The notes beneath the pieces were generated by a model. The model searched no databases. It saw nothing but the letters and a program-made list of their open reading frames with translations, and had not been told where the DNA came from. A stretch of DNA of 24,000 nucleotides. It comes from an uncultured Alcaligenaceae bacterium. Lineage in GTDB: Bacteria > Planctomycetota > Planctomycetia > Gemmatales > Gemmataceae. Shown here piece by piece: positions 12,034-24,000 of the stretch; within the stretch, counting starts at the first letter, position 1, and every line of letters begins with the position of its first letter. The DNA lies in contig CAYVRB010000019.1 in assembly GCA_964453375.1 (NCBI GenBank), forward strand, positions 536 to 24,535. Reading direction: 5' to 3'. The position numbers were made by a program, and so were the translations under genes.

Positions 12034-12357
12034 GACGCGCCGCATGTCGGCCCATCGAGAGCAAACCCGGTACCGCCCGCCAGATTGATCGGCCGGGGGG
12101 TGGCCGGTACTCACGCGCTTCCGTCCCGTCGCGAGTGAGCGCCGGCCGTTCGTACCATCGCCAGGATTCCGATGCGAAGGGCCTCCGGCAGACTTGTCCA
12201 AGAGTCGATGAGCGAGAGCACTTCGGGATCGAAGACGGCCGGTGCGCCGGATTCTACGCCGCCGGACTCGAAATGCGGCGATTTCCCCATAAGTTCGACG
12301 AGGGTTCCAATCCCTCCCGCTCCGCTGTCATTTCTCGGCGTATGGGGATCTTCCGCC

Positions 12358-15300
12358 ATGCCCGCGCGCGAACCTGAGAAAGCCCCGGTCAGTCAAACCG
12401 GCCCGTGGACGCCGCAGACGGTCGTTTCGGCCGACGATTCGACCGGTGCCGCCGGAACCGAAGCCGCGTGGGACGGTCCGTCGCCCGTCATGCCCGGCTA
12501 CGAAATCCTCGGCCTCCTCGGCCGCGGCGGCATGGGCGTCGTCTATCGCGCCCGGCAGAGGCCGCTGAATCGCATCGTCGCCCTCAAGATGATCCTGTCC
12601 GACCGGGACCGCGCGGACCGGAAGGAACTGATTCGCTTTCTCGCCGAGGCCGAGGCCGTCGCGGCCGTGAAACACCCGCACGTCGTGCAGGTGTTTGAAT
12701 ACGGCGATAGCGAAGGCCGGCCGTTCCTCGCGCTCGAATACCTCGCCGGCGGCAGCCTCGCGGACCGTCTCAAGTTCCGCGGCCGACTCGAACCGAAACC
12801 GGCCGCGCGACTCGTGGCGCAGCTCGCGCAGGGGGTTCAGGCCATTCACGATCGCGGCATCGTCCACCGCGATCTCAAGCCGGGCAACGTTCTCTTCGAC
12901 GAATCCGGCGAGCCGAAGATTTCGGACTTCGGCCTGGCCAAGCGCGACGACCGCAACGACCTGACGGCGCGGCAAGCCATCATGGGCACGCCGGCGTACA
13001 TGTCGCCGGAGCAGGCCACGGGCGGCACCAAGTTCGTCGGCCCCGCCGCGGACGTGTATTCCCTCGGCGTGATCCTCTACGTCTGCCTGACCGGTACGAA
13101 ACCGTTCGAGGACGACGACCCGATCAGTCTGTTGCGGAAGGTTGCGGAAGAGGAACCGGAGCGCCCGCGCCGGCGTGTGCCGGGCTTGCCGCGCGATGTG
13201 GAATTGATCTGTTTGAAGTGCCTGGCGAAGGCGCCGCACGATCGCTACGCGACCGCGCAGGCGCTGGCGGACGACCTGGCGCGATTCGCGGCGGACGAAC
13301 CGGTGAGCGTTCGGCCGGCGGGCGCGATCGAACGCGCGGTGAAGTGGTCGCGACGCAAGCCCGCGCTGGCGACGGCGTACGGGCTGGCATTTTTCTCGGT
13401 CATGATCATCCTGTTCGGGGGCGGAGCGTTTGCGTTGTGGAGGACTCGCAAACAGGATGAAGCGAATCTGAAAAATGATCACGCCCGCGAGCGGGCCCGA
13501 AACTTGCTCGCGCTCGCTGCCGACGCCCGTAAGGATTATCGGTACGCTGCGGCGGAGCAAAATCTGTCGGAAGCGGGTGAACTCGCAGCGACGTTCGCCC
13601 CGGACCTCGACGCGGCTGTGAATCAAGCGAAGGCGGACCTCTCGTTCGTCCGTGAACTCGACGAGATTCGGATGGAACGTTCGACATGGCTTCCCGGTAT
13701 CGATGGTGGCGATGGACATTTTGAATCGGAACAAGCACCAAGGAAGTATCGAGACGCATTCCTGACACGAAAACACGATGTGGTTGCGAACCCCGAAGCG
13801 ACCGGAGCCACGGTGACCCAATCGGCGATTCGGATCGATCTCTTGGCCGCATTGAACGATTGGGCAATTTTGGAACCCGATGCGTTCATTCGAGACAGAG
13901 TCTTATCGGCCGTCGGTCGAGCGGACCCGAATTCCCCGGCAGCGCCCTTTCGTGATCCCGCCATTTGGCAAGACAGTAGCCAACTCTTGGCTTTGGTGGC
14001 AAAAATCGAAAAGACGCAGCTCTCGTCCGGCGATGCGATTGCCATCGCGTCAATCATGACAAAGCAAGGTTTGGACGCCGCACCGCTCTTACGTCGTACC
14101 ATGGCGCTCAATCCGCGCGATTTCCTGCCGCCATATACGCTGGGGATGATACTTCCGGCAGGTCCCGCCAAGAATCCCGAACGGGTCGGGGCGTTCCGGG
14201 CAAGTCGGGCCATCCGACCGGACAACGCCGCGGTGCTCGCCGCATTGGGGCACGCCCTCCACGGAATGGGCGACATTCCCGGCGCTCTCGCGGTATGGAA
14301 GGAAGCCGCAAGGGTCGATCCTCGCCACGCCCTCATTCACACGCAATTGGGTATCGGTTTGAAGGATTCCGGAGATTTGCCGGCCGCGATCGCGTCCTAT
14401 AAGGAAGCTGTACGACTGGATGCGAAATATTTTTTGGCCCACTACAATCTCTCGATCGCCTTGAAGGCATCGGGAGATCTCCCCGGCGCCGTCGCGTCCA
14501 TCCAAGAAGCCATTCGCCTCAAACCCGAGAGCGCCTTCTCTCACAACAACCTCGGGACTTATTACTGGGCCCAAGACCGCGACGGCGAGGCGATCGCCGC
14601 ATTCAAAGAAGCGATTCGACTCAATCCCAAGTACTTGTATCCACGGAATAATCTCGGAGGCGTGTATTCCCGTCAGAAGAAGCACGTCGAGGCGATTGCG
14701 GAGTTCAAGGAAGCGATCCGGCTCGATCCCAAATACGTTTCGCCCCACATCGGTCTCGGACACGCGTACTTGGATCTGGAGCAATATACGGAGGCGATCG
14801 CGACATTCAAAGTCGCGAATCGGTTGGATCCCAAATCAACTCTACCACTGATCGGTTTAGGCTCGGTCTATCACAAGCAGGAAAAGTACGCGGAAGCAAT
14901 TGCCGCGCACAGAGTCGCCATTGGCATCGACACCAATAGCGCTGCTGCCTACTCGTGTCTCGGAGATTCTCTGAGAGCCAGTGGGGAATTGGATGAAGCG
15001 ATACTTGCATATCGAGATGCGATTCGTCTCAAGCCGATGAAAGCCGAGTATCATGCCGAATTGGGGGATGCGCTGGCCGACGCGGCGCTCTGGGCGGACG
15101 CGGTCGCGAACTATGCCAACGCAGTCGATCTCGATCCCCAACTCGCGTCCGTTCACAATAGTTTGGCGTGGCTCTTGTCGACGGGACCTACCGAGATTCG
15201 CAATGGAAAACGGGCCGTCGAACACGCGGAAAAGGCCGTGAGATTGACCGAAGGAAACAAGGCGATTTATATTGATACTCAGGCGGCCGCGTTTGCGGAA

Positions 15301-17430
15301 TCGGGTGATTTCGCCAAGGCGATTGAATCCCAGAAGCGAGCGCTCGCCGTACCGGAATATGTACGAGAACTCGGTACCGAAGGTCGGAAACGGCTGGCGC
15401 TCTATCTGCGAAATCAACCGTATCGCGATACGATCATGCAAGCCCGAGGACACTATCACCGTGGTATGTCATTTCGGAATCGTGGCGATTTCGAGAACGC
15501 GATCGCACAACTCCAGGCATCGATCCAACTTGCGCCAAACGATCTCGCCACCCGCAAGACGCTGGAACATCTGTTGAAAGATAAGGCCGAAGCTGGCCTG
15601 ACCTTGCTGGAACATACTTCCGCAACGCGGGCACTCGGATTCAGTTCCGATGGATCCATGATCGTCACGAGCGACTCGAAACTCGTCCGGATCTGGAATG
15701 CGAAAACGGGAAATACATCGTTCAAACTGGAATCGCCAAGTCCCGTCGCACGCGTGCAGTACGGACCGAATGGACGAGTCCTTTCCGTATGCAATTTAGA
15801 ATCCGTCGTCCGACTGCACGATTCCGCCACGGGAAAATTGAAAGGCCTTGTGCGTTCGCCCAAGGGCATTTTGATCGATGCCATCTTCGGAGCGGCAGGC
15901 AATCGAATCGTCGCGTTGAGCGCCGGCGGCTCCTTCTTCGTGATGGAACCCGACGGAATGCTCGTCAAATCCTTTCCCGCGTTCGAGGGAAAACTTTCGG
16001 TCACCAGAATGGCTGTCAGTCCCGATGGGAATCGTGTATGCGTGGGTCTCGGTATCGGCTCCGAATGGAGCGGAAAAATATGGGATCTCTCTTCGGGGAC
16101 GCCGGTCGCCTCGTGGAAGGCCGGGGTCATCTATTCGGTGGCATGGAGCCCGGATGGCAAGTCGATTGCTTCGGCGGAAGCGGACCGCCAATTGTTCATT
16201 CGTGATGCCGCGACGGGGCTCCCTCGAACGGTGATTCCTGTCAACCAATCGTCCTCTACGACGGCGTCGGCCGTTGCGTATGGTCGCGATTCCAACACGG
16301 TGGCGATCGTGTGCTTCAACGGCACCGTGGAAGTGTGGGACCTCGGCGCGAAGAAAATCGTATTCGCACGCAAGTTGGATCCGACCGAGATCGGCCCCGG
16401 AGCTGCAACATTCAGCCCTGATGGCAAGAGGCTCGCGGCCAGCGCTCCGGGAATCGTCCGGATTTGGGATCTGCCGTCCTCCATCGTACTTCCAAGACCG
16501 AACGCGATGTCCGGTGAAATCGCCGTTCCAAGTTCGCTACGTCAAATCATCCCACAGACCGGTTCCGTCCTCGCCTTGGGTTTCAGTCCGGACAGTGCTC
16601 GCCTCGTCGTTGGGGACACGAAGGTCGTCCGCGTTTGGGATGCGCGAACCGCGCGTGAAGTGTTTACGCTCAACGTGCCGGGGAATCAGTTTCGCGCGTC
16701 GTATAGTACTGCCGGGCATATTCTCTCTTTGAGCAATTCGGAATTCACCGTTCGCCTTTGGGACGCCGCGACCGGCAAGCCACTGCCGGCATTGCCGACA
16801 CTCCAAGGCGCCGTGCGTGAAGCCGTATTCTCGCCGGACGGAAAGCGCGTCGTCTGTGCCGATGCTACGGGGGCTTTCTCGGTGCTGGACCTTCCAAGCA
16901 ATAAGCTTACGCGTAGTGCCGTCGCATTCGACCCTAAACATATCCTCAACGGATTCGCAATCAGCCCCGACGGTCGAAAAGTTTGTTTTGGTACGGGCAA
17001 ATCGCCCGATTGGTCGGTAAAGGTCTGGGACCTCGAGCAAAACAAAGTGGTTCTTTCCACGCCGTCCCAGGAAAAACCCGTCTGGAGTGTCGCCTGGAGC
17101 GCGGACGGGAAGTGGATCGCCTCCGGCGGGGTCGATCAATCGGTGAAGGTCTGGCACGCCGACACTGGCAAACTTCACAAGACCCTCGCCGGCGCGACGA
17201 AGACCGTCGCGCGCGTCGCCATCCATCCCGACAACCACCGCATCGCGGCCACCTGCTTCGACGGCGTCGTTCGCGTCTGGGAGGTCGGGACGGGACAAGT
17301 GGTCGAATCCTTCACGTTTGAGAATCCCGGCATCGGCAACGTCGTCTTCAGTCCGGACGGCCAGAGGCTCGCCGCCAGCGCTCCGGGCGCGGTCAAGATT
17401 TGGGAATTGTCGGGCGCGAAGCGGCCCTGA
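12358..17430 (+). CDS. Ser/Thr protein kinase - TM helix - TPR array - two tandem WD40 beta-propellers (1690 aa from ATG 12358)
   Basis: Hanks kinase motifs are GRGGMGVVYRA, VALK, HRDLKPGNVLF, DFGLA and GTPAYMSPEQ. The TM helix is ALATAYGLAFFSVMIILFGGGAFALW. More than 12 34-aa TPR units follow (AIAxFKEAIRLDPKY...), then WD repeats (FSPDG...VRIWD) to the stop. The track ORF begins at 12172, but the ATG at 12358 gives the usual short leader before the PGYEILG kinase start. Confidence 0.9.
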   Translation: MPAREPEKAPVSQTGPWTPQTVVSADDSTGAAGTEAAWDGPSPVMPGYEILGLLGRGGMGVVYRARQRPLNRIVALKMILSDRDRADRKELIRFLAEAEAVAAVKHPHVVQVFEYGDSEGRPFLALEYLAGGSLADRLKFRGRLEPKPAARLVAQLAQGVQAIHDRGIVHRDLKPGNVLFDESGEPKISDFGLAKRDDRNDLTARQAIMGTPAYMSPEQATGGTKFVGPAADVYSLGVILYVCLTGTKPFEDDDPISLLRKVAEEEPERPRRRVPGLPRDVELICLKCLAKAPHDRYATAQALADDLARFAADEPVSVRPAGAIERAVKWSRRKPALATAYGLAFFSVMIILFGGGAFALWRTRKQDEANLKNDHARERARNLLALAADARKDYRYAAAEQNLSEAGELAATFAPDLDAAVNQAKADLSFVRELDEIRMERSTWLPGIDGGDGHFESEQAPRKYRDAFLTRKHDVVANPEATGATVTQSAIRIDLLAALNDWAILEPDAFIRDRVLSAVGRADPNSPAAPFRDPAIWQDSSQLLALVAKIEKTQLSSGDAIAIASIMTKQGLDAAPLLRRTMALNPRDFLPPYTLGMILPAGPAKNPERVGAFRASRAIRPDNAAVLAALGHALHGMGDIPGALAVWKEAARVDPRHALIHTQLGIGLKDSGDLPAAIASYKEAVRLDAKYFLAHYNLSIALKASGDLPGAVASIQEAIRLKPESAFSHNNLGTYYWAQDRDGEAIAAFKEAIRLNPKYLYPRNNLGGVYSRQKKHVEAIAEFKEAIRLDPKYVSPHIGLGHAYLDLEQYTEAIATFKVANRLDPKSTLPLIGLGSVYHKQEKYAEAIAAHRVAIGIDTNSAAAYSCLGDSLRASGELDEAILAYRDAIRLKPMKAEYHAELGDALADAALWADAVANYANAVDLDPQLASVHNSLAWLLSTGPTEIRNGKRAVEHAEKAVRLTEGNKAIYIDTQAAAFAESGDFAKAIESQKRALAVPEYVRELGTEGRKRLALYLRNQPYRDTIMQARGHYHRGMSFRNRGDFENAIAQLQASIQLAPNDLATRKTLEHLLKDKAEAGLTLLEHTSATRALGFSSDGSMIVTSDSKLVRIWNAKTGNTSFKLESPSPVARVQYGPNGRVLSVCNLESVVRLHDSATGKLKGLVRSPKGILIDAIFGAAGNRIVALSAGGSFFVMEPDGMLVKSFPAFEGKLSVTRMAVSPDGNRVCVGLGIGSEWSGKIWDLSSGTPVASWKAGVIYSVAWSPDGKSIASAEADRQLFIRDAATGLPRTVIPVNQSSSTTASAVAYGRDSNTVAIVCFNGTVEVWDLGAKKIVFARKLDPTEIGPGAATFSPDGKRLAASAPGIVRIWDLPSSIVLPRPNAMSGEIAVPSSLRQIIPQTGSVLALGFSPDSARLVVGDTKVVRVWDARTAREVFTLNVPGNQFRASYSTAGHILSLSNSEFTVRLWDAATGKPLPALPTLQGAVREAVFSPDGKRVVCADATGAFSVLDLPSNKLTRSAVAFDPKHILNGFAISPDGRKVCFGTGKSPDWSVKVWDLEQNKVVLSTPSQEKPVWSVAWSADGKWIASGGVDQSVKVWHADTGKLHKTLAGATKTVARVAIHPDNHRIAATCFDGVVRVWEVGTGQVVESFTFENPGIGNVVFSPDGQRLAASAPGAVKIWELSGAKRP

Positions 17431-17478
17431 CGCCGGCACGAACGATTCCCGGAGATTCGGAATTCCCATCGCGCCCCT

Positions 17479-17700
17479 CCCGTCCTGGACAACCTGCAAA
17501 CCCACAAGGTCCAGGCCGCCGTCGACGCGGTGCACGCCGTCGGCGCCCGCGTGCTGTACCTGCCGCCCTACAGCCCCGACTTCAATCCGATCGAACAAGT
17601 CTTCTCCAAGATCAAGAACGAGTTGCGACGCCGCGAACTCCGCACCATCCCCGAACTGGAAAACGCCTTCGGCGAATCGCTCGATTGGATCACTCGCAAG
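17479..17700 (+). pseudogene. IS630/Tc1-mariner-type DDE transposase, C-terminal fragment only
   Basis: The frame reads PVLDNLQTHKVQAAVDAVHAVGARVLYLPPYSPDFNPIEQVFSKIKNELRRRELRTIPELENAFGESLDWI. This carries the family signature LDN..HK ... LPPYSP-x-xNPIE. No upstream part and no start are present, and it is broken at about 17700 by the rve sequence. Confidence 0.7.
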
Positions 17701-17704
17701 GAGC

Positions 17705-18694
17705 GTCGAGTTCCTTCGCGAGGAGAACCGCATCCTCCGCAGCAAGCTGCCGGAACGGATCGAGATCACGCCGCGCGAGCGATCCCGGCTGTTGAGGTTT
17801 GGACGGAAGCTTGGCAAGGCCATCGGCGGCGTCATCACCATCGTCTCGCCGCGGACCTTTGCCCGGTGGCTCGCCGGCGAGAAGAAACGGCCGAAGCGAA
17901 GCAGCCGCAAGCCGGGCCGGCCACGGACGGAGGAAAGCGTTCGCGATCTCGTATTGCAGTTGGCCCGCGAGACGGGCTGGGGATACTCGCGCTTTCTCGG
18001 CGAGTTGAAGAAACTCGGCATCGGCACCGTGAGTCGCTCGACGGTGATCAACATCTTGCGCGTGGCCGGTCTCGATCCCGGGCCGAAGCGCGGCGTCGGA
18101 TCGTGGAGCGACTTCCTGACGCGGCACGCGGAAACCTTGTGGGCCAGCGACTTTCTCACCGTGAAGACCTGGACCACGCGCGGGATCGTCGATCTGTCAG
18201 TGCTGTTCTTCATCCACCCCGGCACGCGGAAGGTGTTCATCGGCGGCGTCAGCGCGAACCCGGACGCGGCTTGGATGAAACAGCAAGCCCGCAACGCGAC
18301 GATGCGGATGGAGGAGATGGGGCACCCGGTCTCGCACCTGATCATCGATCACGACGGGAAGTACGCGAAGGAGTTTGATGCAATCTTCGAGGCCGAGGAT
18401 GCGAAGGTGCAGCGTGTCGGGCCGAGGGCCCCAAACTTGAACGCCCATGCGGAGCGGTTCGTCCAATCGCTCCGGAACGAGTGTTTGGATCACTTCGTTT
18501 TCTGCGGCGAGAAGCATGTGCGGCACGTTTTGACGGATTATTTGGCCCACTATAACTCGGAGCGGCCGCACCAGGGGATCGGCAACGTGCCGCTGTCGGA
18601 CGGTGCCAAGGCCGTGAAGCCCACGAAGGGCCGGATCAATTGCCGCAAGCGACTCGGCGGGCTGATCCGGCACTACCACCGCTCCGCGGCGTGA
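17705..18694 (+). pseudogene. rve (integrase-core, DDE) transposase lacking its 5' end and start codon
   Basis: The frame reads VEFLREENRILRSKLPERIEITPRERSRLLRFG...GRPRTEESVRDLVLQLARETGWGYSRFLGELKKLGIGTVSRSTVINIL (HTH region). The DDE core follows: LWASDFLTV..., HLIIDHDGKY and NLNAHAERFVQSLRNECL. The 129 aa preceding it in track ORF 17318..18694 are out-of-frame readthrough of the kinase and IS630 sequence. Confidence 0.8.
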
Positions 18695-18898
18695 AGCCGA
18701 TCGAGATTGCGGGCGGTTCCGATCGATCTGATCGCGTCGAAGGTCCGCGCTCGCTCGCAAATCGCCCCGTTTCTGTAAACGCATGTCCACCAAACGTTGC
18801 TCGAATTTGGACATCCCTTGTCCTGCTCCGGTTGCGGTTTCGTCTGGAAATTGCAGCGCGAACGATTGGACAGAGTTTTTGACCAGGACGGACGCACA

Positions 18899-19252
18899 CT
18901 ACCGGCTTTCGTATTTAATTAATTGGCTCATGTACTCATGAAATGCTTCGTCAATCTTTTTGTGGCATACAGATTCCCATATGAATAGCAACTGATCTAA
19001 TGGCCCCTCATGAGGCACCATGTCTCCGCCAAAACCAATACAGTTATCGGCTCGAACGACGCCATCTGCACCCGAGTATGCGATTTCGTTCTCCGCTGTT
19101 GTAAACGCAAGATTCGGACATCGCTGCCCCGAAACCCCGGCAGTGAAACAATGCAAACTAGGCATTGAACGTCCATCGCTGCAAATGCAGGCTACATCCT
19201 TTTCGCCTTCGGAATCACGAAGACAATATATCTCTAATATAATGTGCCTCAT
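18899..19252 (-). CDS. Hypothetical 117-aa Cys-rich protein; candidate immunity protein for the orphan RHS toxin
   Basis: Track ORF MRHIILEIYCLRDSEGEKDVACICSDG.... It is same-strand, 87 nt downstream of the RHS stop, and shares the low G+C of the toxin tip. No family was recognised. The call rests on position only. Confidence 0.45.
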   Translation of the reverse strand: MRHIILEIYCLRDSEGEKDVACICSDGRSMPSLHCFTAGVSGQRCPNLAFTTAENEIAYSGADGVVRADNCIGFGGDMVPHEGPLDQLLFIWESVCHKKIDEAFHEYMSQLIKYESR

Positions 19253-19339: not shown

Positions 19340-22300
19340 TTAGTGGTAATCAACAATTTCAATTACATTGATTGTATCATCGGTGATGGTATAGACTATT
19401 CTCATTCGGCCTCTGCCTCCACCTGAGCCGGGTAAGTCTGCGGCAAATTGTCCCTTTCTGTCGCCAGTTAGCGGATGCTGGTTTCGCCCGGCCTTTCCCA
19501 AGGTTAAGTCATTGACAATCTCGTCATGGGCTTTCTTCTGCTGATCCGTCAGCTTGTCATAATCCTTTTGCGCTTTCTGTGATTGCTTGATACCCTTCTG
19601 CTTAACAGGAAGTTTTCTTAGTTCTGCCGCTGATGGTATCTCAATATTTTGATCCCACAGTTGCTTGGCAAGCTCCGGATTCTTAAGATCCGCCTTGTCC
19701 TCATCGCAAGGATTCTTCAGTCTTTTCTTGATTTCAGTGCGCAGATCATCTGCTTCTTTAGTTGATTTTGCGAGCTTTAGCCTATTAACAAGATTGCAAA
19801 GTCGTTCATTGTGCACCCAGATCGCGAAGTCCCAGCCCGCACCGCCCACGAAGAACGTGTGGTACTCGCCGACCTCAATGTTATACACGACTTCGGGCAC
19901 ATCGGACTGCTCGATAGCGTCGATTGTGCGGTAGTCGCCATCCTTGCCGCGGACCTCCACGCCCGCGTTCAGCTCATGCAGTGGCTGCCAGCCCCGGCCA
20001 CGCACGTAGAGCGGGTGGCCTGATGTCATCCGCAATGTCTGACCGCCGATCCGCACTGTCCACGCCGGTGCGACGCTCCGAATCGCCTGTTGAATGACCT
20101 GGACGCCGACCGTGCAATCTGGATCGTCCTCGCACGCAGAATAGACGAGGTCGCCGGGTTGCAAGTCTTCAATTGGTCTAGGGCCGTTTGGGGTCAAGAT
20201 CGGCGTGCCCGCAACGAAGCAGCCCGTAAGAGCTTCAGCAAGCGACGATCCCAATGCGGCCTGTCCGTTCGTGCGTTCGATATCGTCGAGTGCTCTGTTG
20301 ATCTTCTCCAACTGTTTGGGATCGGTCGTCTTGCCGGCCGCTTCCGCCAGATCCATTGCCGCCTGCTCGGCTATCGGTCCGGCGTTTCCAGCCTTGAGCT
20401 TCTTGAGTATCTTGGCAGCCTTCGCCTTCATCAGGGTCTTAACGGCGCTCATGACTTTGCCGGCGCCACTCCCGCACAAGACGCTTAAGCCGGCTTTGAT
20501 GAATGCTTTGCTTGGATTTTCTTTCCAGTCCTTCAAAAACTCGTTTTTCATCGCCTCTCGCACTCGCTCGTCAGTCGCAAGCAAGTAGATGGCCTCGGCA
20601 AGTTCTAACGCGAATTTCTTTGGATCTGTAATGATCTTGCCGACCAGTTCAGCCGTCTCGTTCACCATTTCCTTTACAGCTTGTCCAAAGTTTTCGAAAC
20701 CTTCACCTAAGCCTTCTTTGGCATTGTCGATAAATCCCTTCGGATCATTCCAGGCATACTCAATAATCATCTTTTGTTCATCGATGAAGCCTTTGCCAAA
20801 ACGGATTGCCCGCTCAGCGGTATCTGAAGCCACAGCCTCGGTCTCATCAAAAAATTGATCGATAGCGTTCGGACCGGTGATTCCCTGTTCGCGATCCACT
20901 GTCGCCATCCAATAATCTACATACCTGGTCCCAATATTGTCATATCGCCTTTGAACCAATCCTCCTCGTGGATTCCCTCCTGCGAATAAATGATGCGTAC
21001 TGCGATTATCGATTGCGGCGTCGAGGATTTCATTGACTGCGTCTTCAGAATAGTACTGCAACAGCGCCTGACGTAATTTCTCTCGATGATTCGGATTGAT
21101 CCAGAGAAATTGGCCGCGGCTATCACCGACCCAACCGTGTTGAATACCATTGGCATTCAAAAAATCAGCAAAGTTCTGGTAATCACCGGGTCGATCGACG
21201 ATCCAGTAATTCCCGCTCGGATCCACCCCGTTCGTCGCCCCGTTGCCAACGTAGCGGTACAGATTCGGGTCTTCTCCTGCCTGCCGGATGCCGTCCTCGC
21301 CCATCCAGCGGCCCGTCGACGGGTCGTACATCCGCGCCCGGCTGTACTGCAAACCCAGCGTTTCGTCCCATTCTCTTCCCGTGAACGCGTAGCGATCGAC
21401 CGGCACGCCGCCAAGGAAGCCGCCGAAGGCGTCGTAGTCCGTTTCGCCGCTCGTCGCGCCCGAATTGTCAAAGACCTGGCGGACCGAACCCAGCCGATCC
21501 GTTGCATACCACGATACATCCCCGCCCGCGTCCTGGCGAGCCACGACCTCGTCGAAGCCCGCCCCGAACACCCGGCGATCCGTCACGGCGCCCGTGCCGT
21601 CCAGATCGAGAATCGTATCGAAGTTCTCCGTCCCGATCGCGCTCGGTTTCGTCGTGTCCCACCCATCGACGACGTACTGGGCTTCGATCGTGGTGGTGCC
21701 GTCCGTTTCTGTACGGCCGATGCGGTTGCCAAACGCATCATACGCATACGTTACCGTCGTCGTGCCATCAGTCGCTTCCGTCATCTGCCCGCGCAGGTCG
21801 TATTCGTACGTCCATGCTTCCCCGGTCTTCGATTTGCCGACTACGTTGCCATCGAGATCGTGCGCGTATGTCCAAGTCCCGTCTTCCGTCATTCGATTGC
21901 CGTCGGCGGTGACATAACCACTGAGCGTGCGATTCCCCGTCGCATCGTACGAAATCGTCGAACTGTTCCGGGCCGTCACCTGCCCGATGGCATCGTAGCT
22001 GTAAGTCGTGGTGACGCTGTCTTCCACTTTCTCCGTGAGCCGGTTGGCAAGATCGTACTCGTAGGCGTAGTCGGCGATGAGCGTGCCGGCCCCGGAGCCG
22101 GTGCGGTGCTCGATGTCGACGAGCCGGCCGCCGTCGTCGTAGGCGTAGCTGGACTTTCCTTCCTGTGTGGTGCCGGTCAGGTCGCTGAACCGCGTGACCG
22201 TGGCGAGCTCGTCGCGGTCGGTGTAGTTGTAATCGAAGCGCAGGTCGCCGGACGGACCGTCGAGCTTCCGGCTGGTCAGCCGGTTGGCGAGGTCGAAGGT

Positions 22301-22723
22301 GCTGGTCTGCGTACCGCCCTTGGAGTCGGCGACGGACGTGCGGTTGCCGGCCCCGTCGTAGGCGAAGGTGAGCGTCACGCCGGAGGGGGTTTCGACTTCC
22401 TCGGCCCGGTTCAGCTCGTCGCGGACGATCGTGTAGTCGCCGTCCGGGTCGGTCGCCGAGACGAGGAAGCCCGCGTCATCGTAGCCGAAGGTCTGCGTCT
22501 GGAGCAGCGAGTTGCCGGCCGAGTACCAGGCTTCCGATGTCCGGCGGTTGGCGTCGTCGTAGCCGAAGACCCGCTCGCGGCCCTCCCGGTCGACGATCGA
22601 GACGAGCCGCCCGGCATCGTCGTAATCGTAGACGATCGACTCGGAGTAGGCGTCGGTCTCGGAGGTCAGCCGGTTCAGCTTGTCGTAGGCGAAGGTGTGT
22701 TTGTTGGCGGAGGCGTCCTCCAT
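19340..22723 (-). CDS. RHS/YD-repeat polymorphic toxin, 5'-truncated (orphan) copy, with a HINT domain and a YoeB/RelE-like C-terminal domain
   Basis: YD repeats run throughout the N-terminal ~500 aa (FAYDKLNRLTSETDAYSESIVYDYDDAGRLVSIVDREGRERVFGYDDANRRT...). The core-terminal motif is YSRARMYDPSTGRWMGEDG...YRYVGNGATNGVDPSGNY. The reading frame with YD repeats stays open upstream of the first ATG to about 22885 (THFYDDADRIVTVIDPLDYETAYEFDELDRVV...) with no start codon. Confidence 0.85.
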   Translation of the reverse strand: MEDASANKHTFAYDKLNRLTSETDAYSESIVYDYDDAGRLVSIVDREGRERVFGYDDANRRTSEAWYSAGNSLLQTQTFGYDDAGFLVSATDPDGDYTIVRDELNRAEEVETPSGVTLTFAYDGAGNRTSVADSKGGTQTSTFDLANRLTSRKLDGPSGDLRFDYNYTDRDELATVTRFSDLTGTTQEGKSSYAYDDGGRLVDIEHRTGSGAGTLIADYAYEYDLANRLTEKVEDSVTTTYSYDAIGQVTARNSSTISYDATGNRTLSGYVTADGNRMTEDGTWTYAHDLDGNVVGKSKTGEAWTYEYDLRGQMTEATDGTTTVTYAYDAFGNRIGRTETDGTTTIEAQYVVDGWDTTKPSAIGTENFDTILDLDGTGAVTDRRVFGAGFDEVVARQDAGGDVSWYATDRLGSVRQVFDNSGATSGETDYDAFGGFLGGVPVDRYAFTGREWDETLGLQYSRARMYDPSTGRWMGEDGIRQAGEDPNLYRYVGNGATNGVDPSGNYWIVDRPGDYQNFADFLNANGIQHGWVGDSRGQFLWINPNHREKLRQALLQYYSEDAVNEILDAAIDNRSTHHLFAGGNPRGGLVQRRYDNIGTRYVDYWMATVDREQGITGPNAIDQFFDETEAVASDTAERAIRFGKGFIDEQKMIIEYAWNDPKGFIDNAKEGLGEGFENFGQAVKEMVNETAELVGKIITDPKKFALELAEAIYLLATDERVREAMKNEFLKDWKENPSKAFIKAGLSVLCGSGAGKVMSAVKTLMKAKAAKILKKLKAGNAGPIAEQAAMDLAEAAGKTTDPKQLEKINRALDDIERTNGQAALGSSLAEALTGCFVAGTPILTPNGPRPIEDLQPGDLVYSACEDDPDCTVGVQVIQQAIRSVAPAWTVRIGGQTLRMTSGHPLYVRGRGWQPLHELNAGVEVRGKDGDYRTIDAIEQSDVPEVVYNIEVGEYHTFFVGGAGWDFAIWVHNERLCNLVNRLKLAKSTKEADDLRTEIKKRLKNPCDEDKADLKNPELAKQLWDQNIEIPSAAELRKLPVKQKGIKQSQKAQKDYDKLTDQQKKAHDEIVNDLTLGKAGRNQHPLTGDRKGQFAADLPGSGGGRGRMRIVYTITDDTINVIEIVDYH
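19343..19600 (-). other. YoeB/RelE-superfamily mRNA-interferase-like toxin domain at the extreme C-terminus of the RHS protein
   Basis: Hand alignment to E. coli YoeB as I recall it. KGIKQSQKAQKDYDKLTDQQKKAHDEIVNDL aligns with KLIWSEESWDDYLYWQETDKRIVKKINELIKDT. HPLTGDRKGQFAADL aligns with EPLKHNLSGFWSRRI. RIVYTITDDTINVIEIVDYH aligns with RLVYAVTDDSLLIAACRYHY. Confidence 0.55.
19808..20221 (-). other. HINT (Hedgehog/intein-like, pre-toxin HINT/BIL-type) self-cleaving domain inside the RHS C-terminal region
   Basis: The 138-aa domain starts CFVAGTPILTPNGPRPIEDLQPGDLVYS and ends VYNIEVGEYHTFFVGGAGWDFAIWVHN. The next residue is Glu, not Cys/Ser/Thr, so cleavage rather than splicing is expected. 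Confidence 0.75.
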
Positions 22724-22923
22724 CCAGGTCCGGTTGCCGTTGGCGTCGTAGCCGAAGGTCGTGTCGTTGTCGAGCGCGTCGGTGACGACGACGACGCGGT
22801 CGAGCTCGTCGAACTCGTAGGCCGTCTCGTAATCGAGCGGATCGATGACGGTGACGATCCGGTCGGCGTCGTCGTAGAAGTGAGTAGCGTCTCCTATCCT
22901 TTCCCGTCCCTTTTTTAATCCAC

Positions 22924-23565
22924 CTATCCAATACCGCTTTTATCCAAGTACTTACGAAATTCAAGAAGGCCGAAATCATTGCGATCTACCAAGAAAGCCA
23001 ATTTAATATTGGACAATTTTTGGGCAGCTTCTTCGCCGTTCGCTATTAACGCCATAGCCACAGCTCGCTTAGCTCTTTCGCCATGAAGCGGCGAATGAAG
23101 CCAGGAAGCTGGGCCATCTCCACTTAGAACTTCCAATGCTTTCTGCGGATCGGAGTATGTTTCAATATAGGGAATACCAATCTTTGCAAATGCTTCTAAC
23201 ACTGATTCCGCGACTCCTAGAATATCATCTGAACATGCCAAAGTCCATCTCCTTTGTCGGCCTTCGCTAAGGTTGCCCAACTCGCAACCCAAAGTAAAAG
23301 TGTTCGTCTTCTCAGACTTTGTAAGCAATGGATCGTTCATATAGCGACTGATCAGTTCCTCTACCTGATCAAACCGAATAGCAACATCTGCAGTGACATC
23401 AAAATCATTGTCGTGTTTAATAAATGCCAAGTGGAATGAGGCACGGCCAAAAGGGCAGCTTTTTAGAAACGATTGCCCCTTAGGTCGATTGTCAAAACCG
23501 AACTTCTGAAGACCCTGGCCGACTGCTAACAAGAGTTTGTCTTGCCATATTTTAAAATTTTTCAT
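22924..23565 (-). CDS. Hypothetical 213-aa protein; candidate immunity protein for the upstream nuclease-type toxin
   Basis: Track ORF MKNFKIWQDKLLLAVGQGLQKFGFDNRPKGQSF.... Its ATG overlaps the toxin stop by one base (TAATG, 23567..23563), and it has low G+C. No family was recognised with confidence. Confidence 0.5.
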   Translation of the reverse strand: MKNFKIWQDKLLLAVGQGLQKFGFDNRPKGQSFLKSCPFGRASFHLAFIKHDNDFDVTADVAIRFDQVEELISRYMNDPLLTKSEKTNTFTLGCELGNLSEGRQRRWTLACSDDILGVAESVLEAFAKIGIPYIETYSDPQKALEVLSGDGPASWLHSPLHGERAKRAVAMALIANGEEAAQKLSNIKLAFLVDRNDFGLLEFRKYLDKSGIG

Positions 23566-24000
23566 TAAGGCACCCTTCGCTCGATTGTAGGTATGGTGAC
23601 TCGTGTACCTTCAAGACCAGTGGGAGCGTTCTTCCCCACTATTACTCCTCCTTCGGTTGCTATCGCATTATCCTTTGCAATTTGTGTTGCATCACGAACC
23701 GCGCCACCAGATTTTACTTCAACAGCGACTATTCTGCCGTCAGGCGTTCGGATCAGGTGATCTACAACACGATTACCTTGTGAAGTACGAATAGTGACTT
23801 GGCTGCCAAGAATCGTGTTGCCTTCACTTTCAAGTTGTTTTGCCACAGTGATTTCCGCTGCCTTGCCAGCTGCTCGATTAGTCGCCAAAATCTCTGCTTT
23901 AGTCCTAGCTGCCTTCGGAGGCGCCGGACAGTCCGTCTTGCCGAGATTTTTTGAAGAAGCGGACAATTCATCGTCGAATTCCTTGCCCGCTTTCTTGAGG
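23565..24000 (-). CDS. 3' end of a larger toxin gene entering from the right edge; C-terminal PD-(D/E)xK (restriction-endonuclease-fold) nuclease-like domain
   Basis: The track starts it at TTG 23966, but the frame is open to position 24000 (LKKAGKEFDDELSASSKNLGK...). The tip AAEITVAKQLESEGNTILGSQVTIRTSQGNRVVDHLIRTPDGRIVAVEVKSGGAVRDATQ shows the E...D...E-x-K...Q arrangement of REase-fold toxin domains. Confidence 0.65.
   Translation of the reverse strand, partial: LKKAGKEFDDELSASSKNLGKTDCPAPPKAARTKAEILATNRAAGKAAEITVAKQLESEGNTILGSQVTIRTSQGNRVVDHLIRTPDGRIVAVEVKSGGAVRDATQIAKDNAIATEGGVIVGKNAPTGLEGTRVTIPTIERRVP

Follow-up and report, generated by a model that had tools for sequence, protein, structure and literature searches.

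An orphan Rhs cassette in a planctomycete genome with a predicted RelE-superfamily toxin tip and a Cys-rich candidate immunity protein

The subject of this analysis is a toxin-bearing Rhs fragment, together with the small gene that follows it, in a stretch of 24,000 nucleotides from the genome of an uncultured bacterium of the Gemmataceae (assembly GCA_964453375.1, contig CAYVRB010000019.1). This stretch, positions 536-24535 of the contig (C19), is called the window throughout, and the remaining contig sequence was also fetched for the main rhs gene, which extends beyond it. The toxin-bearing open reading frame (ORF), P0001, lies on the reverse strand at 19340..22723, encodes 1127 amino acids and has the C-terminal end ...GRMRIVYTITDDTINVIEIVDYH directly before its stop codon. 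Its frame, taken from stop to stop, reaches back to 22939 and is intact over 1199 codons. The features of this frame and of its downstream neighbour, in window positions, are the following.

21209..22939, reverse strand: orphan RHS core fragment, in which the YD repeats start abruptly behind an in-frame stop.
20222..21208, reverse strand: module of about 330 amino acids, of no assigned family, that separates the DPSGN motif of the Rhs core from the HINT domain.
19808..20221, reverse strand: pretoxin HINT autoprotease domain (PF07591, E 2.5e-12; Hint_2, E 1.8e-7).
19595..19807, reverse strand: Lys/Glu-rich linker, E973-K1043.
19343..19594, reverse strand: predicted RelE-superfamily (HigB-like) RNase toxin domain, residues 1044-1127 (84 amino acids).
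19475..19477, reverse strand: His1083, invariant in the family, aligned with HigB His54.
19412..19429, reverse strand: Gly-rich insertion GSGGGR, six residues, absent from HigB, RelE/StbE and YoeB.
19400..19402, reverse strand: Arg1108, invariant in the family, aligned with HigB Arg73.
19343..19351, reverse strand: Asp1125-Tyr1126-His1127 at the extreme C-terminus, aligned with HigB Asp90-Tyr91-His92.
18899..19252, reverse strand: P0002, a Cys-rich ORF of 117 amino acids with seven Cys, downstream of the toxin; candidate cognate immunity protein.

The order of modules in P0001 is that of a polymorphic toxin. The RHS/YD repeats occupy residues 12 to about 430 (RHS_repeat, E 1e-30) and are followed by the Rhs-associated core at residues 430-504 (Rhs_assc_core, E 2e-16), with the core motif DPSGN at residues 501-505 (window 21209-21223). 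The module of about 330 residues behind the core has no match in Pfam or NCBIfam, and one like it is absent from most members of the toxin family described below. The HINT domain matches PF07591 with 47.7 bits against a threshold of 27.7 (Pfam span 842-973, the domain being read as C835-N972) and has the expected motifs C835, T900-xx-H903 and H971-N972; the +1 residue is a Glu (E973), and therefore cleavage rather than splicing is expected. The linker between this domain and the toxin is missing in most family members, in which the toxin comes 10-20 residues after the HINT-type ..VHN.

RelE-type toxins are textbook components of intracellular toxin-antitoxin systems, and recent surveys continue to treat them as chiefly intracellular. 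The tip of P0001 belongs by several lines of evidence to their superfamily. As a single sequence it matches the curated models TIGR02385 RelE_StbE (E 3e-4, profile positions 2-81 of 88), ParE_toxin (E 0.005-0.007, positions 1-82 of 89), Txe_YoeB (TIGR02116; E 0.013, 15.6 bits with a cut-off of 51.8) and YoeB_toxin (PF06769; E 0.06-0.08, positions 4-76 of 80, 13.4-13.8 bits with a cut-off of 27), while the HigB-like PF05015 was not among the hmmscan matches of the tail. The AlphaFold2 (AF2) model of the tip, made from the single sequence, has a predicted local distance difference test (pLDDT) of 73 and a beta-alpha-alpha-beta4 topology (E18-20, H22-29, H33-47, E55-57, E65-70, E79-87, E90-99). 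Compared by Foldseek with the PDB, it retrieved at ranks 1-8 Mycobacterium tuberculosis RelE1 and RelE2, HP0892, HigB, HP0894 and Cami1, with probabilities of 0.96-1.0 and template modelling (TM) scores of 0.5-0.66; Foldseek of viral structures returned nothing informative. A profile built from 48 members of the toxin family, searched against PDB sequences, placed Proteus HigB at the top (E 0.014-0.09), then Staphylococcus aureus YoeB, M. tuberculosis RelE1 and a YafQ, so that its best eight matches are all HigB, YoeB, RelE or YafQ.

When the 48-member profile was compared by hhalign with alignments of the genomic members of four known families from the same phylum, the best match was to the HigB-like PF05015 (26 members; 97.1%, E 6.7e-11, 68 columns), followed by TIGR02385 RelE_StbE (7 members; 96.7%, E 4e-10, 70 columns), PF06769 YoeB (16 members; 88.0%, E 3.2e-6, 37 columns) and PF05016 ParE_toxin (30 members; 51.6%, E 1.5e-4, 23 columns). 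Controls between the four known families gave mostly 89-95%, with the exception of HigB versus ParE (12%), and by these scores the tip family stands no further from HigB and RelE/StbE than those families stand from one another. Membership of the tip in the RelE superfamily is thus solid, and its nearest branch is predicted from these profiles to be HigB or RelE-StbE/YafQ, not YoeB. Classical relatives are scarce in the window's own genome, where PF05015 found none at E <= 1e-5 and the tail profile a single weak classical RelE/ParE gene (E 0.39).

The likeness extends to the active site. In Proteus HigB, mutagenesis and 70S structures have shown that His54, Asp90, Tyr91 and His92 are critical in vivo and that Arg73 is in contact with the scissile phosphate; His54 has been proposed as the general base, Arg73 as the transition-state stabiliser and Tyr91, with support from Asp90 and His92, as the general acid (Schureck et al. 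2016, PMC5027501). All five residues are aligned in the tip, H54/R73/D90/Y91/H92 of HigB corresponding to H1083/R1108/D1125/Y1126/H1127 (the HigB chain index in the alignment being one off from the numbering of the paper), and P0001 ends exactly at ...DYH, like many members of PF05015. Among the 48 aligned tips, numbered along the 88-residue tail (tail residue n is residue 1039+n of P0001), H44, L46, G66, R69 and H88 are invariant and G40, G52, A55, D57, G62, G64 and R65 nearly so. The Gly-rich insertion is part of a nearly invariant GSGxGRG motif (19409-19429) and is located in the hairpin ahead of the Arg strand, the block of lowest pLDDT in the domain; the GSGxGR insertion is the hallmark of this toxin family.

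A preliminary description of this DNA, made from the sequence, had seen a type II toxin-antitoxin fold at the tip of the RHS protein (at 19343-19600, that is residues 1042-1127), and the profile, Foldseek and hhalign comparisons with the RelE superfamily all returned relatives from within it. The same description likened the tip to YoeB along its whole length, which is right at the level of the superfamily and not as to the nearest relative. The C-terminal RxVY...YH segment that it pointed out is indeed shared with YoeB, while the catalytic set as a whole, H...R...D-Y-H, is that of HigB; the Gly-rich insertion is likewise real, at six residues instead of the four to five first counted.

The same fold could nevertheless serve another target, such that the tip would be a ribosome-independent RNase acting on tRNA, rRNA or free mRNA, like most secreted toxins of the BECR fold, with the Gly/Arg-rich loop as a new substrate-binding element. 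The near-invariance of the GSGxGRG insertion and its position beside the catalytic Arg are in keeping with this, as are the relatives of HP0892 and HP0894 type among the structural matches and a BECR survey (2026 preprint), according to which exported BECR toxins fall mostly into non-RelE groups and RelE-like proteins are predominantly intracellular. On the other hand, the tip keeps every residue of the HigB catalytic set, among them the C-terminal D-Y-H, which contacts A-site mRNA, and its nearest profiles are HigB-like and RelE/StbE, whose studied representatives (P. vulgaris HigB, E. coli RelE and YafQ) depend on the ribosome. A target other than ribosome-bound mRNA is consequently regarded as unlikely.

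The tip belongs to a sizeable family with a characteristic position in its carriers. While a word-indexed search with the tail returned almost nothing (P0003 only), an exhaustive phmmer search over 1.84 billion representatives returned 95 proteins at E <= 1e-3, of which 21 reached E <= 1e-10; after removal of three repetitive false positives, 92 remained. In 90 of these 92 the domain lies at most 8 residues from the C-terminus, and more than 60 residues precede it in 59, with a HINT-type ..VHN just upstream in 18; the C-termini read DYH in 38 members and HxY in 39. Those of greater length are RHS proteins, often but not always with PT-HINT, and one combines SpvB, FG-GAP, RHS and HINT. There is no Pfam model for this family, and scans of viral contigs with the toxin and with P0002 gave no match. 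The closest relative of the tip is P0003 (L014, 2-292), in which an in-frame stop lies 24 codons before the first Met and 27 codons before the aligned core; judging by this frame, P0003 too looks like an orphan or free-standing cassette.

One metagenome locus with this toxin (L008) proved to be E. coli, in which the full tip and an ORF of 65 amino acids are present in 8 of 5426 complete genomes; a search of E. coli DNA with the Gilliamella tip gave no match. In E. coli S10 the gene order is vgrG, a DcrB-related gene (EagR), Rhs (1473 amino acids), the 65-amino-acid ORF and SMI1/KNR4, and because of this vgrG-EagR-Rhs arrangement the toxin family can be said to be used on a bona fide effector of a type VI secretion system (T6SS). 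Both the Rhs protein (WP_073535618.1) and the 65-amino-acid protein (WP_001542649.1) bear generic annotation only. The window's genome itself has two strong genes for the T6SS sheath protein TssC (C10:5310-6209 and C65:2018-2917) and two further PT-HINT proteins, on C120 and C414, and therefore runs other polymorphic toxin systems, but the orphan cassette has no carrier of its own.

The gene behind the toxin was examined as the candidate immunity gene. P0002 starts with an ATG preceded at 4 nt by AAGGTGA, a stop codon lies two codons upstream, and the gap from the toxin stop is 87 nt. The preliminary description had given this ORF as 117 amino acids with seven Cys and unlike Phd/YefM antitoxins, and both statements are correct: P0002 has no match in Pfam or NCBIfam and none to Phd/YefM, helix-turn-helix (HTH) or antitoxin families. 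A neighbour of non-antitoxin type is no surprise, because such neighbours are the rule for polymorphic-toxin immunity proteins. No relative was found among PDB sequences, and no homolog by word-indexed protein search or in 400 genomes of the phylum, where three matches at E~0.007 were short or stop-containing and hence noise. The sole known homolog, P0098 (47% identity over 97 residues, E 6e-32), is encoded 20 nt behind P0003, itself 64% identical to the toxin, on an independent ENA contig of 602 bp. The two proteins share the N-terminus from residue 2, Cys10, 22, 24, 35, 45 and 96, and His34, a CxC...HC...C...C set that may bind zinc. A P0002-type ORF thus stands beside this toxin clade in two of two known cases, and P0002 is probably, as far as gene neighbourhood can tell, the alternative immunity protein of this clade.

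The rest of the family has a different neighbour. In all 11 related loci found with a seven-sequence toxin alignment (L003-L013; Gilliamella apis, Pyrinomonadaceae, Thermoanaerobaculia, Chitinimonas, Planctomycetaceae and six metagenome contigs), an ORF of 63-100 amino acids directly behind the toxin encodes a protein of the pattern WNYRV..YEVYYDDdG.V.G....PV.P...S.E.L. This WNYRV protein occurs in at least five phyla and in E. coli (WP_001542649.1; L111 8480-8677), the 100-amino-acid planctomycete version being a divergent member (20 bits), and has no relative in Pfam, NCBIfam or the PDB. Neither it nor P0002 matches a curated Pfam immunity family (Imm/SUKH/SMI1 and similar) at E <= 1, noise aside, among models whose inclusion of Imm54 is unverified. 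It had been suspected by eye that P0002 is a WNYRV protein with a Cys-rich insert, and this was rejected (hhalign of P0002 plus P0098, 0.4%; hmmsearch scores negative). The true oddity of the locus would then be that the immunity protein of this clade differs from that of the rest of the toxin family.

This contrast can also be turned against P0002, which might not be an immunity protein at all, the true WNYRV-type gene having been lost, for example with insertion sequence (IS) insertions, and the toxin being a dead relic. Besides its presence in 11 of 11 related loci, the WNYRV gene is absent in any frame from the window's genome (six-frame hmmsearch --max), IS fragments adjoin the P0002 ORF, and the failure to find P0002 homologs in the phylum genomes or by the word-indexed search fits the same account. 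However, the one homolog that exists is placed in the same way, right after the closest toxin relative, on a contig that is independent and diverged, and has kept six Cys, and the 87 nt between the toxin stop and P0002 offer neither space for a WNYRV ORF nor a remnant of one. Loss of the original immunity gene is for these reasons held to be improbable. If P0002 does protect, a single secreted toxin family of RelE/HigB type would be countered by two or more immunity proteins of unrelated structure, namely the widespread WNYRV protein of 65 amino acids and, in this clade, that of 117 amino acids. This would amount to a natural immunity swap on an mRNase that needs the ribosome and is delivered from cell to cell; the chances of this proposition are evenly balanced.

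Whether P0001 can be delivered depends on its surroundings, in which the following further features were recognised.

23565..24000, reverse strand: 3' end of the main rhs gene, an ORF of 1968 amino acids that extends past the window (RHS_repeat, E 3e-83).
C-terminus of the main RHS protein: NERD / PD-(D/E)xK-like domain (NERD, E 1e-4 to 3e-6).
22924..23565, reverse strand: ORF of 213 amino acids with a G+C content of 0.44, its start overlapping the stop of the main rhs gene.
17318..18890, forward strand: nested IS/transposase fragments (rve_3, HTH_32, DDE_3) that bound the toxin island and separate it from a giant kinase gene.

The 213-amino-acid ORF (22924..23565) has no family match in Pfam or NCBIfam and is presumably the candidate immunity gene of the main rhs toxin. 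Residues 1072-1650 of the main Rhs protein are the collinear counterpart of the orphan core, with identities of 50% (amino acids) and 66% (nucleotides) and an exact match of DNA of at most 23 nt. In comparison with the main gene, the orphan is short of about 1070 shell residues and of any trafficking domain. YD repeats are present over 72 codons upstream of the ATG at 22723, and the YD-repeat frame opened by the stop at 22939 contains no ATG, GTG or TTG ahead of 22723. Of the attributes of an Rhs system, P0001 thus has the YD repeats, the core and the variable C-terminal toxin, and lacks the full shell, an N-terminal trafficking/secretion domain and a start codon. The G+C content changes along the frame, from 0.64 in the Rhs core fragment to 0.50 in the module behind it, 0.62 in PT-HINT, 0.42 in the linker and 0.47 in the toxin tip, with 0.46 in the 117-amino-acid ORF and 0.665 in the whole genome; such a mosaic within one ORF suggests, from composition, separate recombination joints, one at the end of the core and one at that of HINT.

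The layout is therefore a classical one, in which a main rhs gene and its immunity gene precede a start-less orphan rhs-CT/immunity cassette. Orphan rhs-CT/immunity modules downstream of main rhs genes have reportedly been described by Poole and colleagues in 2011 and, in Salmonella, by Koskiniemi and colleagues in 2014, and the Salmonella orphans are reported to be activated by recombination. The present locus resembles these modules in its start-less core fragment, in a toxin and immunity gene different from those of the full rhs gene directly ahead of it, and in its low G+C. Unlike in Salmonella, an activating recombination is unlikely here (66% DNA identity in the core, longest run 23 nt). 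With its 5' end and start codon missing and a full rhs gene ahead of it, the orphan cassette is not deliverable as it stands, and the secreted toxin of the preliminary description is in this form not a working one.

It could be argued that the fragment is expressed from the ATG at 22723 as a protein of 1127 amino acids, serving as a toxin or a toxin-antitoxin-like module without the full Rhs shell. The frame is indeed intact over its 1199 codons and has that ATG in frame, but repeats that continue 72 codons upstream of it, up to a stop and with no possible start, and the absence of about 1070 shell residues and any trafficking domain speak against a gene that begins there; promoter-like matches between 18600 and 23700 are few, 6 as against 2.8 +/- 1.5 in shuffled sequences, and none lies upstream of 22723. 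Expression in this form is very unlikely. A gyrase poison of ParE type instead of an RNase is hardly credible, given that ParE_toxin, although the best Pfam match by name, is a model that also covers E. coli RelE, that hhalign to its members reached 51.6% over 23 columns, and that the invariant His, Arg and His and the Tyr fit the RNase members, such catalytic residues being absent from ParE toxins (Gerdes 2025, PMC11980606).

Taken together, these observations make it likely that the locus is a stored (orphan) Rhs C-terminal toxin/immunity cassette with an RNase tip of the RelE superfamily. In a complete Rhs carrier version of it, the shell would enclose the C-terminal region and cut at the core motif, and cyclisation of the HINT residue Asn972 would free E973-H1127. 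In the cytosol of a target cell the tip would then enter the ribosomal A site and cut mRNA in the manner of HigB: His1083 would serve as general base, Tyr1126, kept in place by Asp1125 and His1127, as general acid, and Arg1108 would stabilise the transition state. Inside the producer the 117-amino-acid protein would bind and block the toxin. The present cassette would be a reservoir or a relic, whose immunity gene could still protect against neighbours with the same toxin.

Several points weigh against this interpretation. The single-sequence matches of the tip to curated RelE, ParE, YoeB and HigB models are all under their gathering cut-offs, the structure model was likewise made from a single sequence with TM-scores of just 0.5-0.66, and the RNase activity of the family members is a prediction. 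The conserved GSGxGRG insertion beside the active-site Arg could alter the substrate. The immunity function of P0002 is drawn from two cases of adjacency, and its AF2 model, from a two-sequence alignment, has a pLDDT of 43. Finally, re-activation of the cassette by recombination is doubtful, because of the low DNA identity and the short exact match between its core and the main gene.

The concept of a RelE domain as the warhead of a polymorphic toxin was already published in 2012, when Tox-RelE, of the BECR fold, was described in association with HINT, RHS and Imm54 by Zhang, de Souza, Anantharaman, Iyer and Aravind (Zhang et al. 2012, Biol Direct 7:18, PMC3482391), with "only a single instance" of the classical RelE domain in a polymorphic toxin, from Paenibacillus elgii and with [KR]/R active-site residues. 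The window's cassette shares with Tox-RelE the RelE C-terminal warhead, the HINT releasing protease, the RHS repeats and an adjacent immunity gene of non-antitoxin type. Compared by description, it differs in belonging to about 92 clusters, in its HigB-like H/R/D-Y-H residues and GSGxGRG insertion, and in having, in place of Imm54, two unrelated and unnamed immunity families without a Pfam model. A recent survey of mono- and multidomain RelE/ParE toxins makes no mention of Rhs (Gerdes 2025, PMC11980606), and an experimental paper on an Rhs-RelE toxin was not found in the literature search. What is new here is the membership in a large uncurated toxin family and the second, Cys-rich immunity candidate in this clade.

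Among free-standing toxins, P. vulgaris HigB (PDB 4px8, 4mct; PMC5027501) is the best PDB profile match, with the HPL-GDR-G strand, the Arg strand and the terminal D-Y-H aligned, the same beta-alpha-alpha-beta4 fold and a C-terminus that ends at the catalytic His. Unlike HigB, the tip stays under the PF05015 cut-off, has the six-residue Gly-rich insertion and is fused behind Rhs/HINT; its neighbour is not a HigA (HTH-XRE) antitoxin, and there is no sign of autoregulation or of a labile antidote. YoeB, RelE/StbE and YafQ are members of this superfamily too and share with the tip the Arg strand (RxVY) as well as the C-terminal His/Tyr, whereas the hhalign match to YoeB spans 37 columns only and the tip has no YefM/Phd partner. 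The T6SS Rhs effector of E. coli S10 has the same toxin family at its extreme C-terminus, with 47% identity to the window's tip, and in contrast to the orphan is full-length, T6SS-linked, without HINT and followed by an immunity protein of the 65-amino-acid WNYRV type.

The direct biological weight of this instance is small, because it is a non-deliverable orphan. The family of HigB-like Rhs tips, on the other hand, is sizeable and unnamed, extends over several phyla and includes an E. coli T6SS effector, while its members are currently annotated as no more than "RHS repeat-associated core domain-containing protein" and "hypothetical protein"; Pfam-style models of the toxin and of the two immunity families would improve this annotation. 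Should the reading with two immunity proteins be true, antitoxins (HigA, YefM, RelB) and two immunity folds acting on the same active site would become directly comparable.

Two further observations concern the flanks of the island. On the fetched contig sequence (L002), an ORF of 1975 amino acids with FG-GAP repeats (L002 4764-10691, reverse strand) overlaps the main RHS ORF (L002 101-6007, reverse strand) in another frame, over 1.2 kb at the 5' end of the latter. This overlap could stem from a frameshift that splits a single giant gene, from the presence of two genes, or from high G+C that leaves a long but spurious ORF. On the opposite side, the island is directly adjoined by the gene of a 1752-amino-acid Ser/Thr kinase with TPR and WD40 domains (12172-17430, forward strand).

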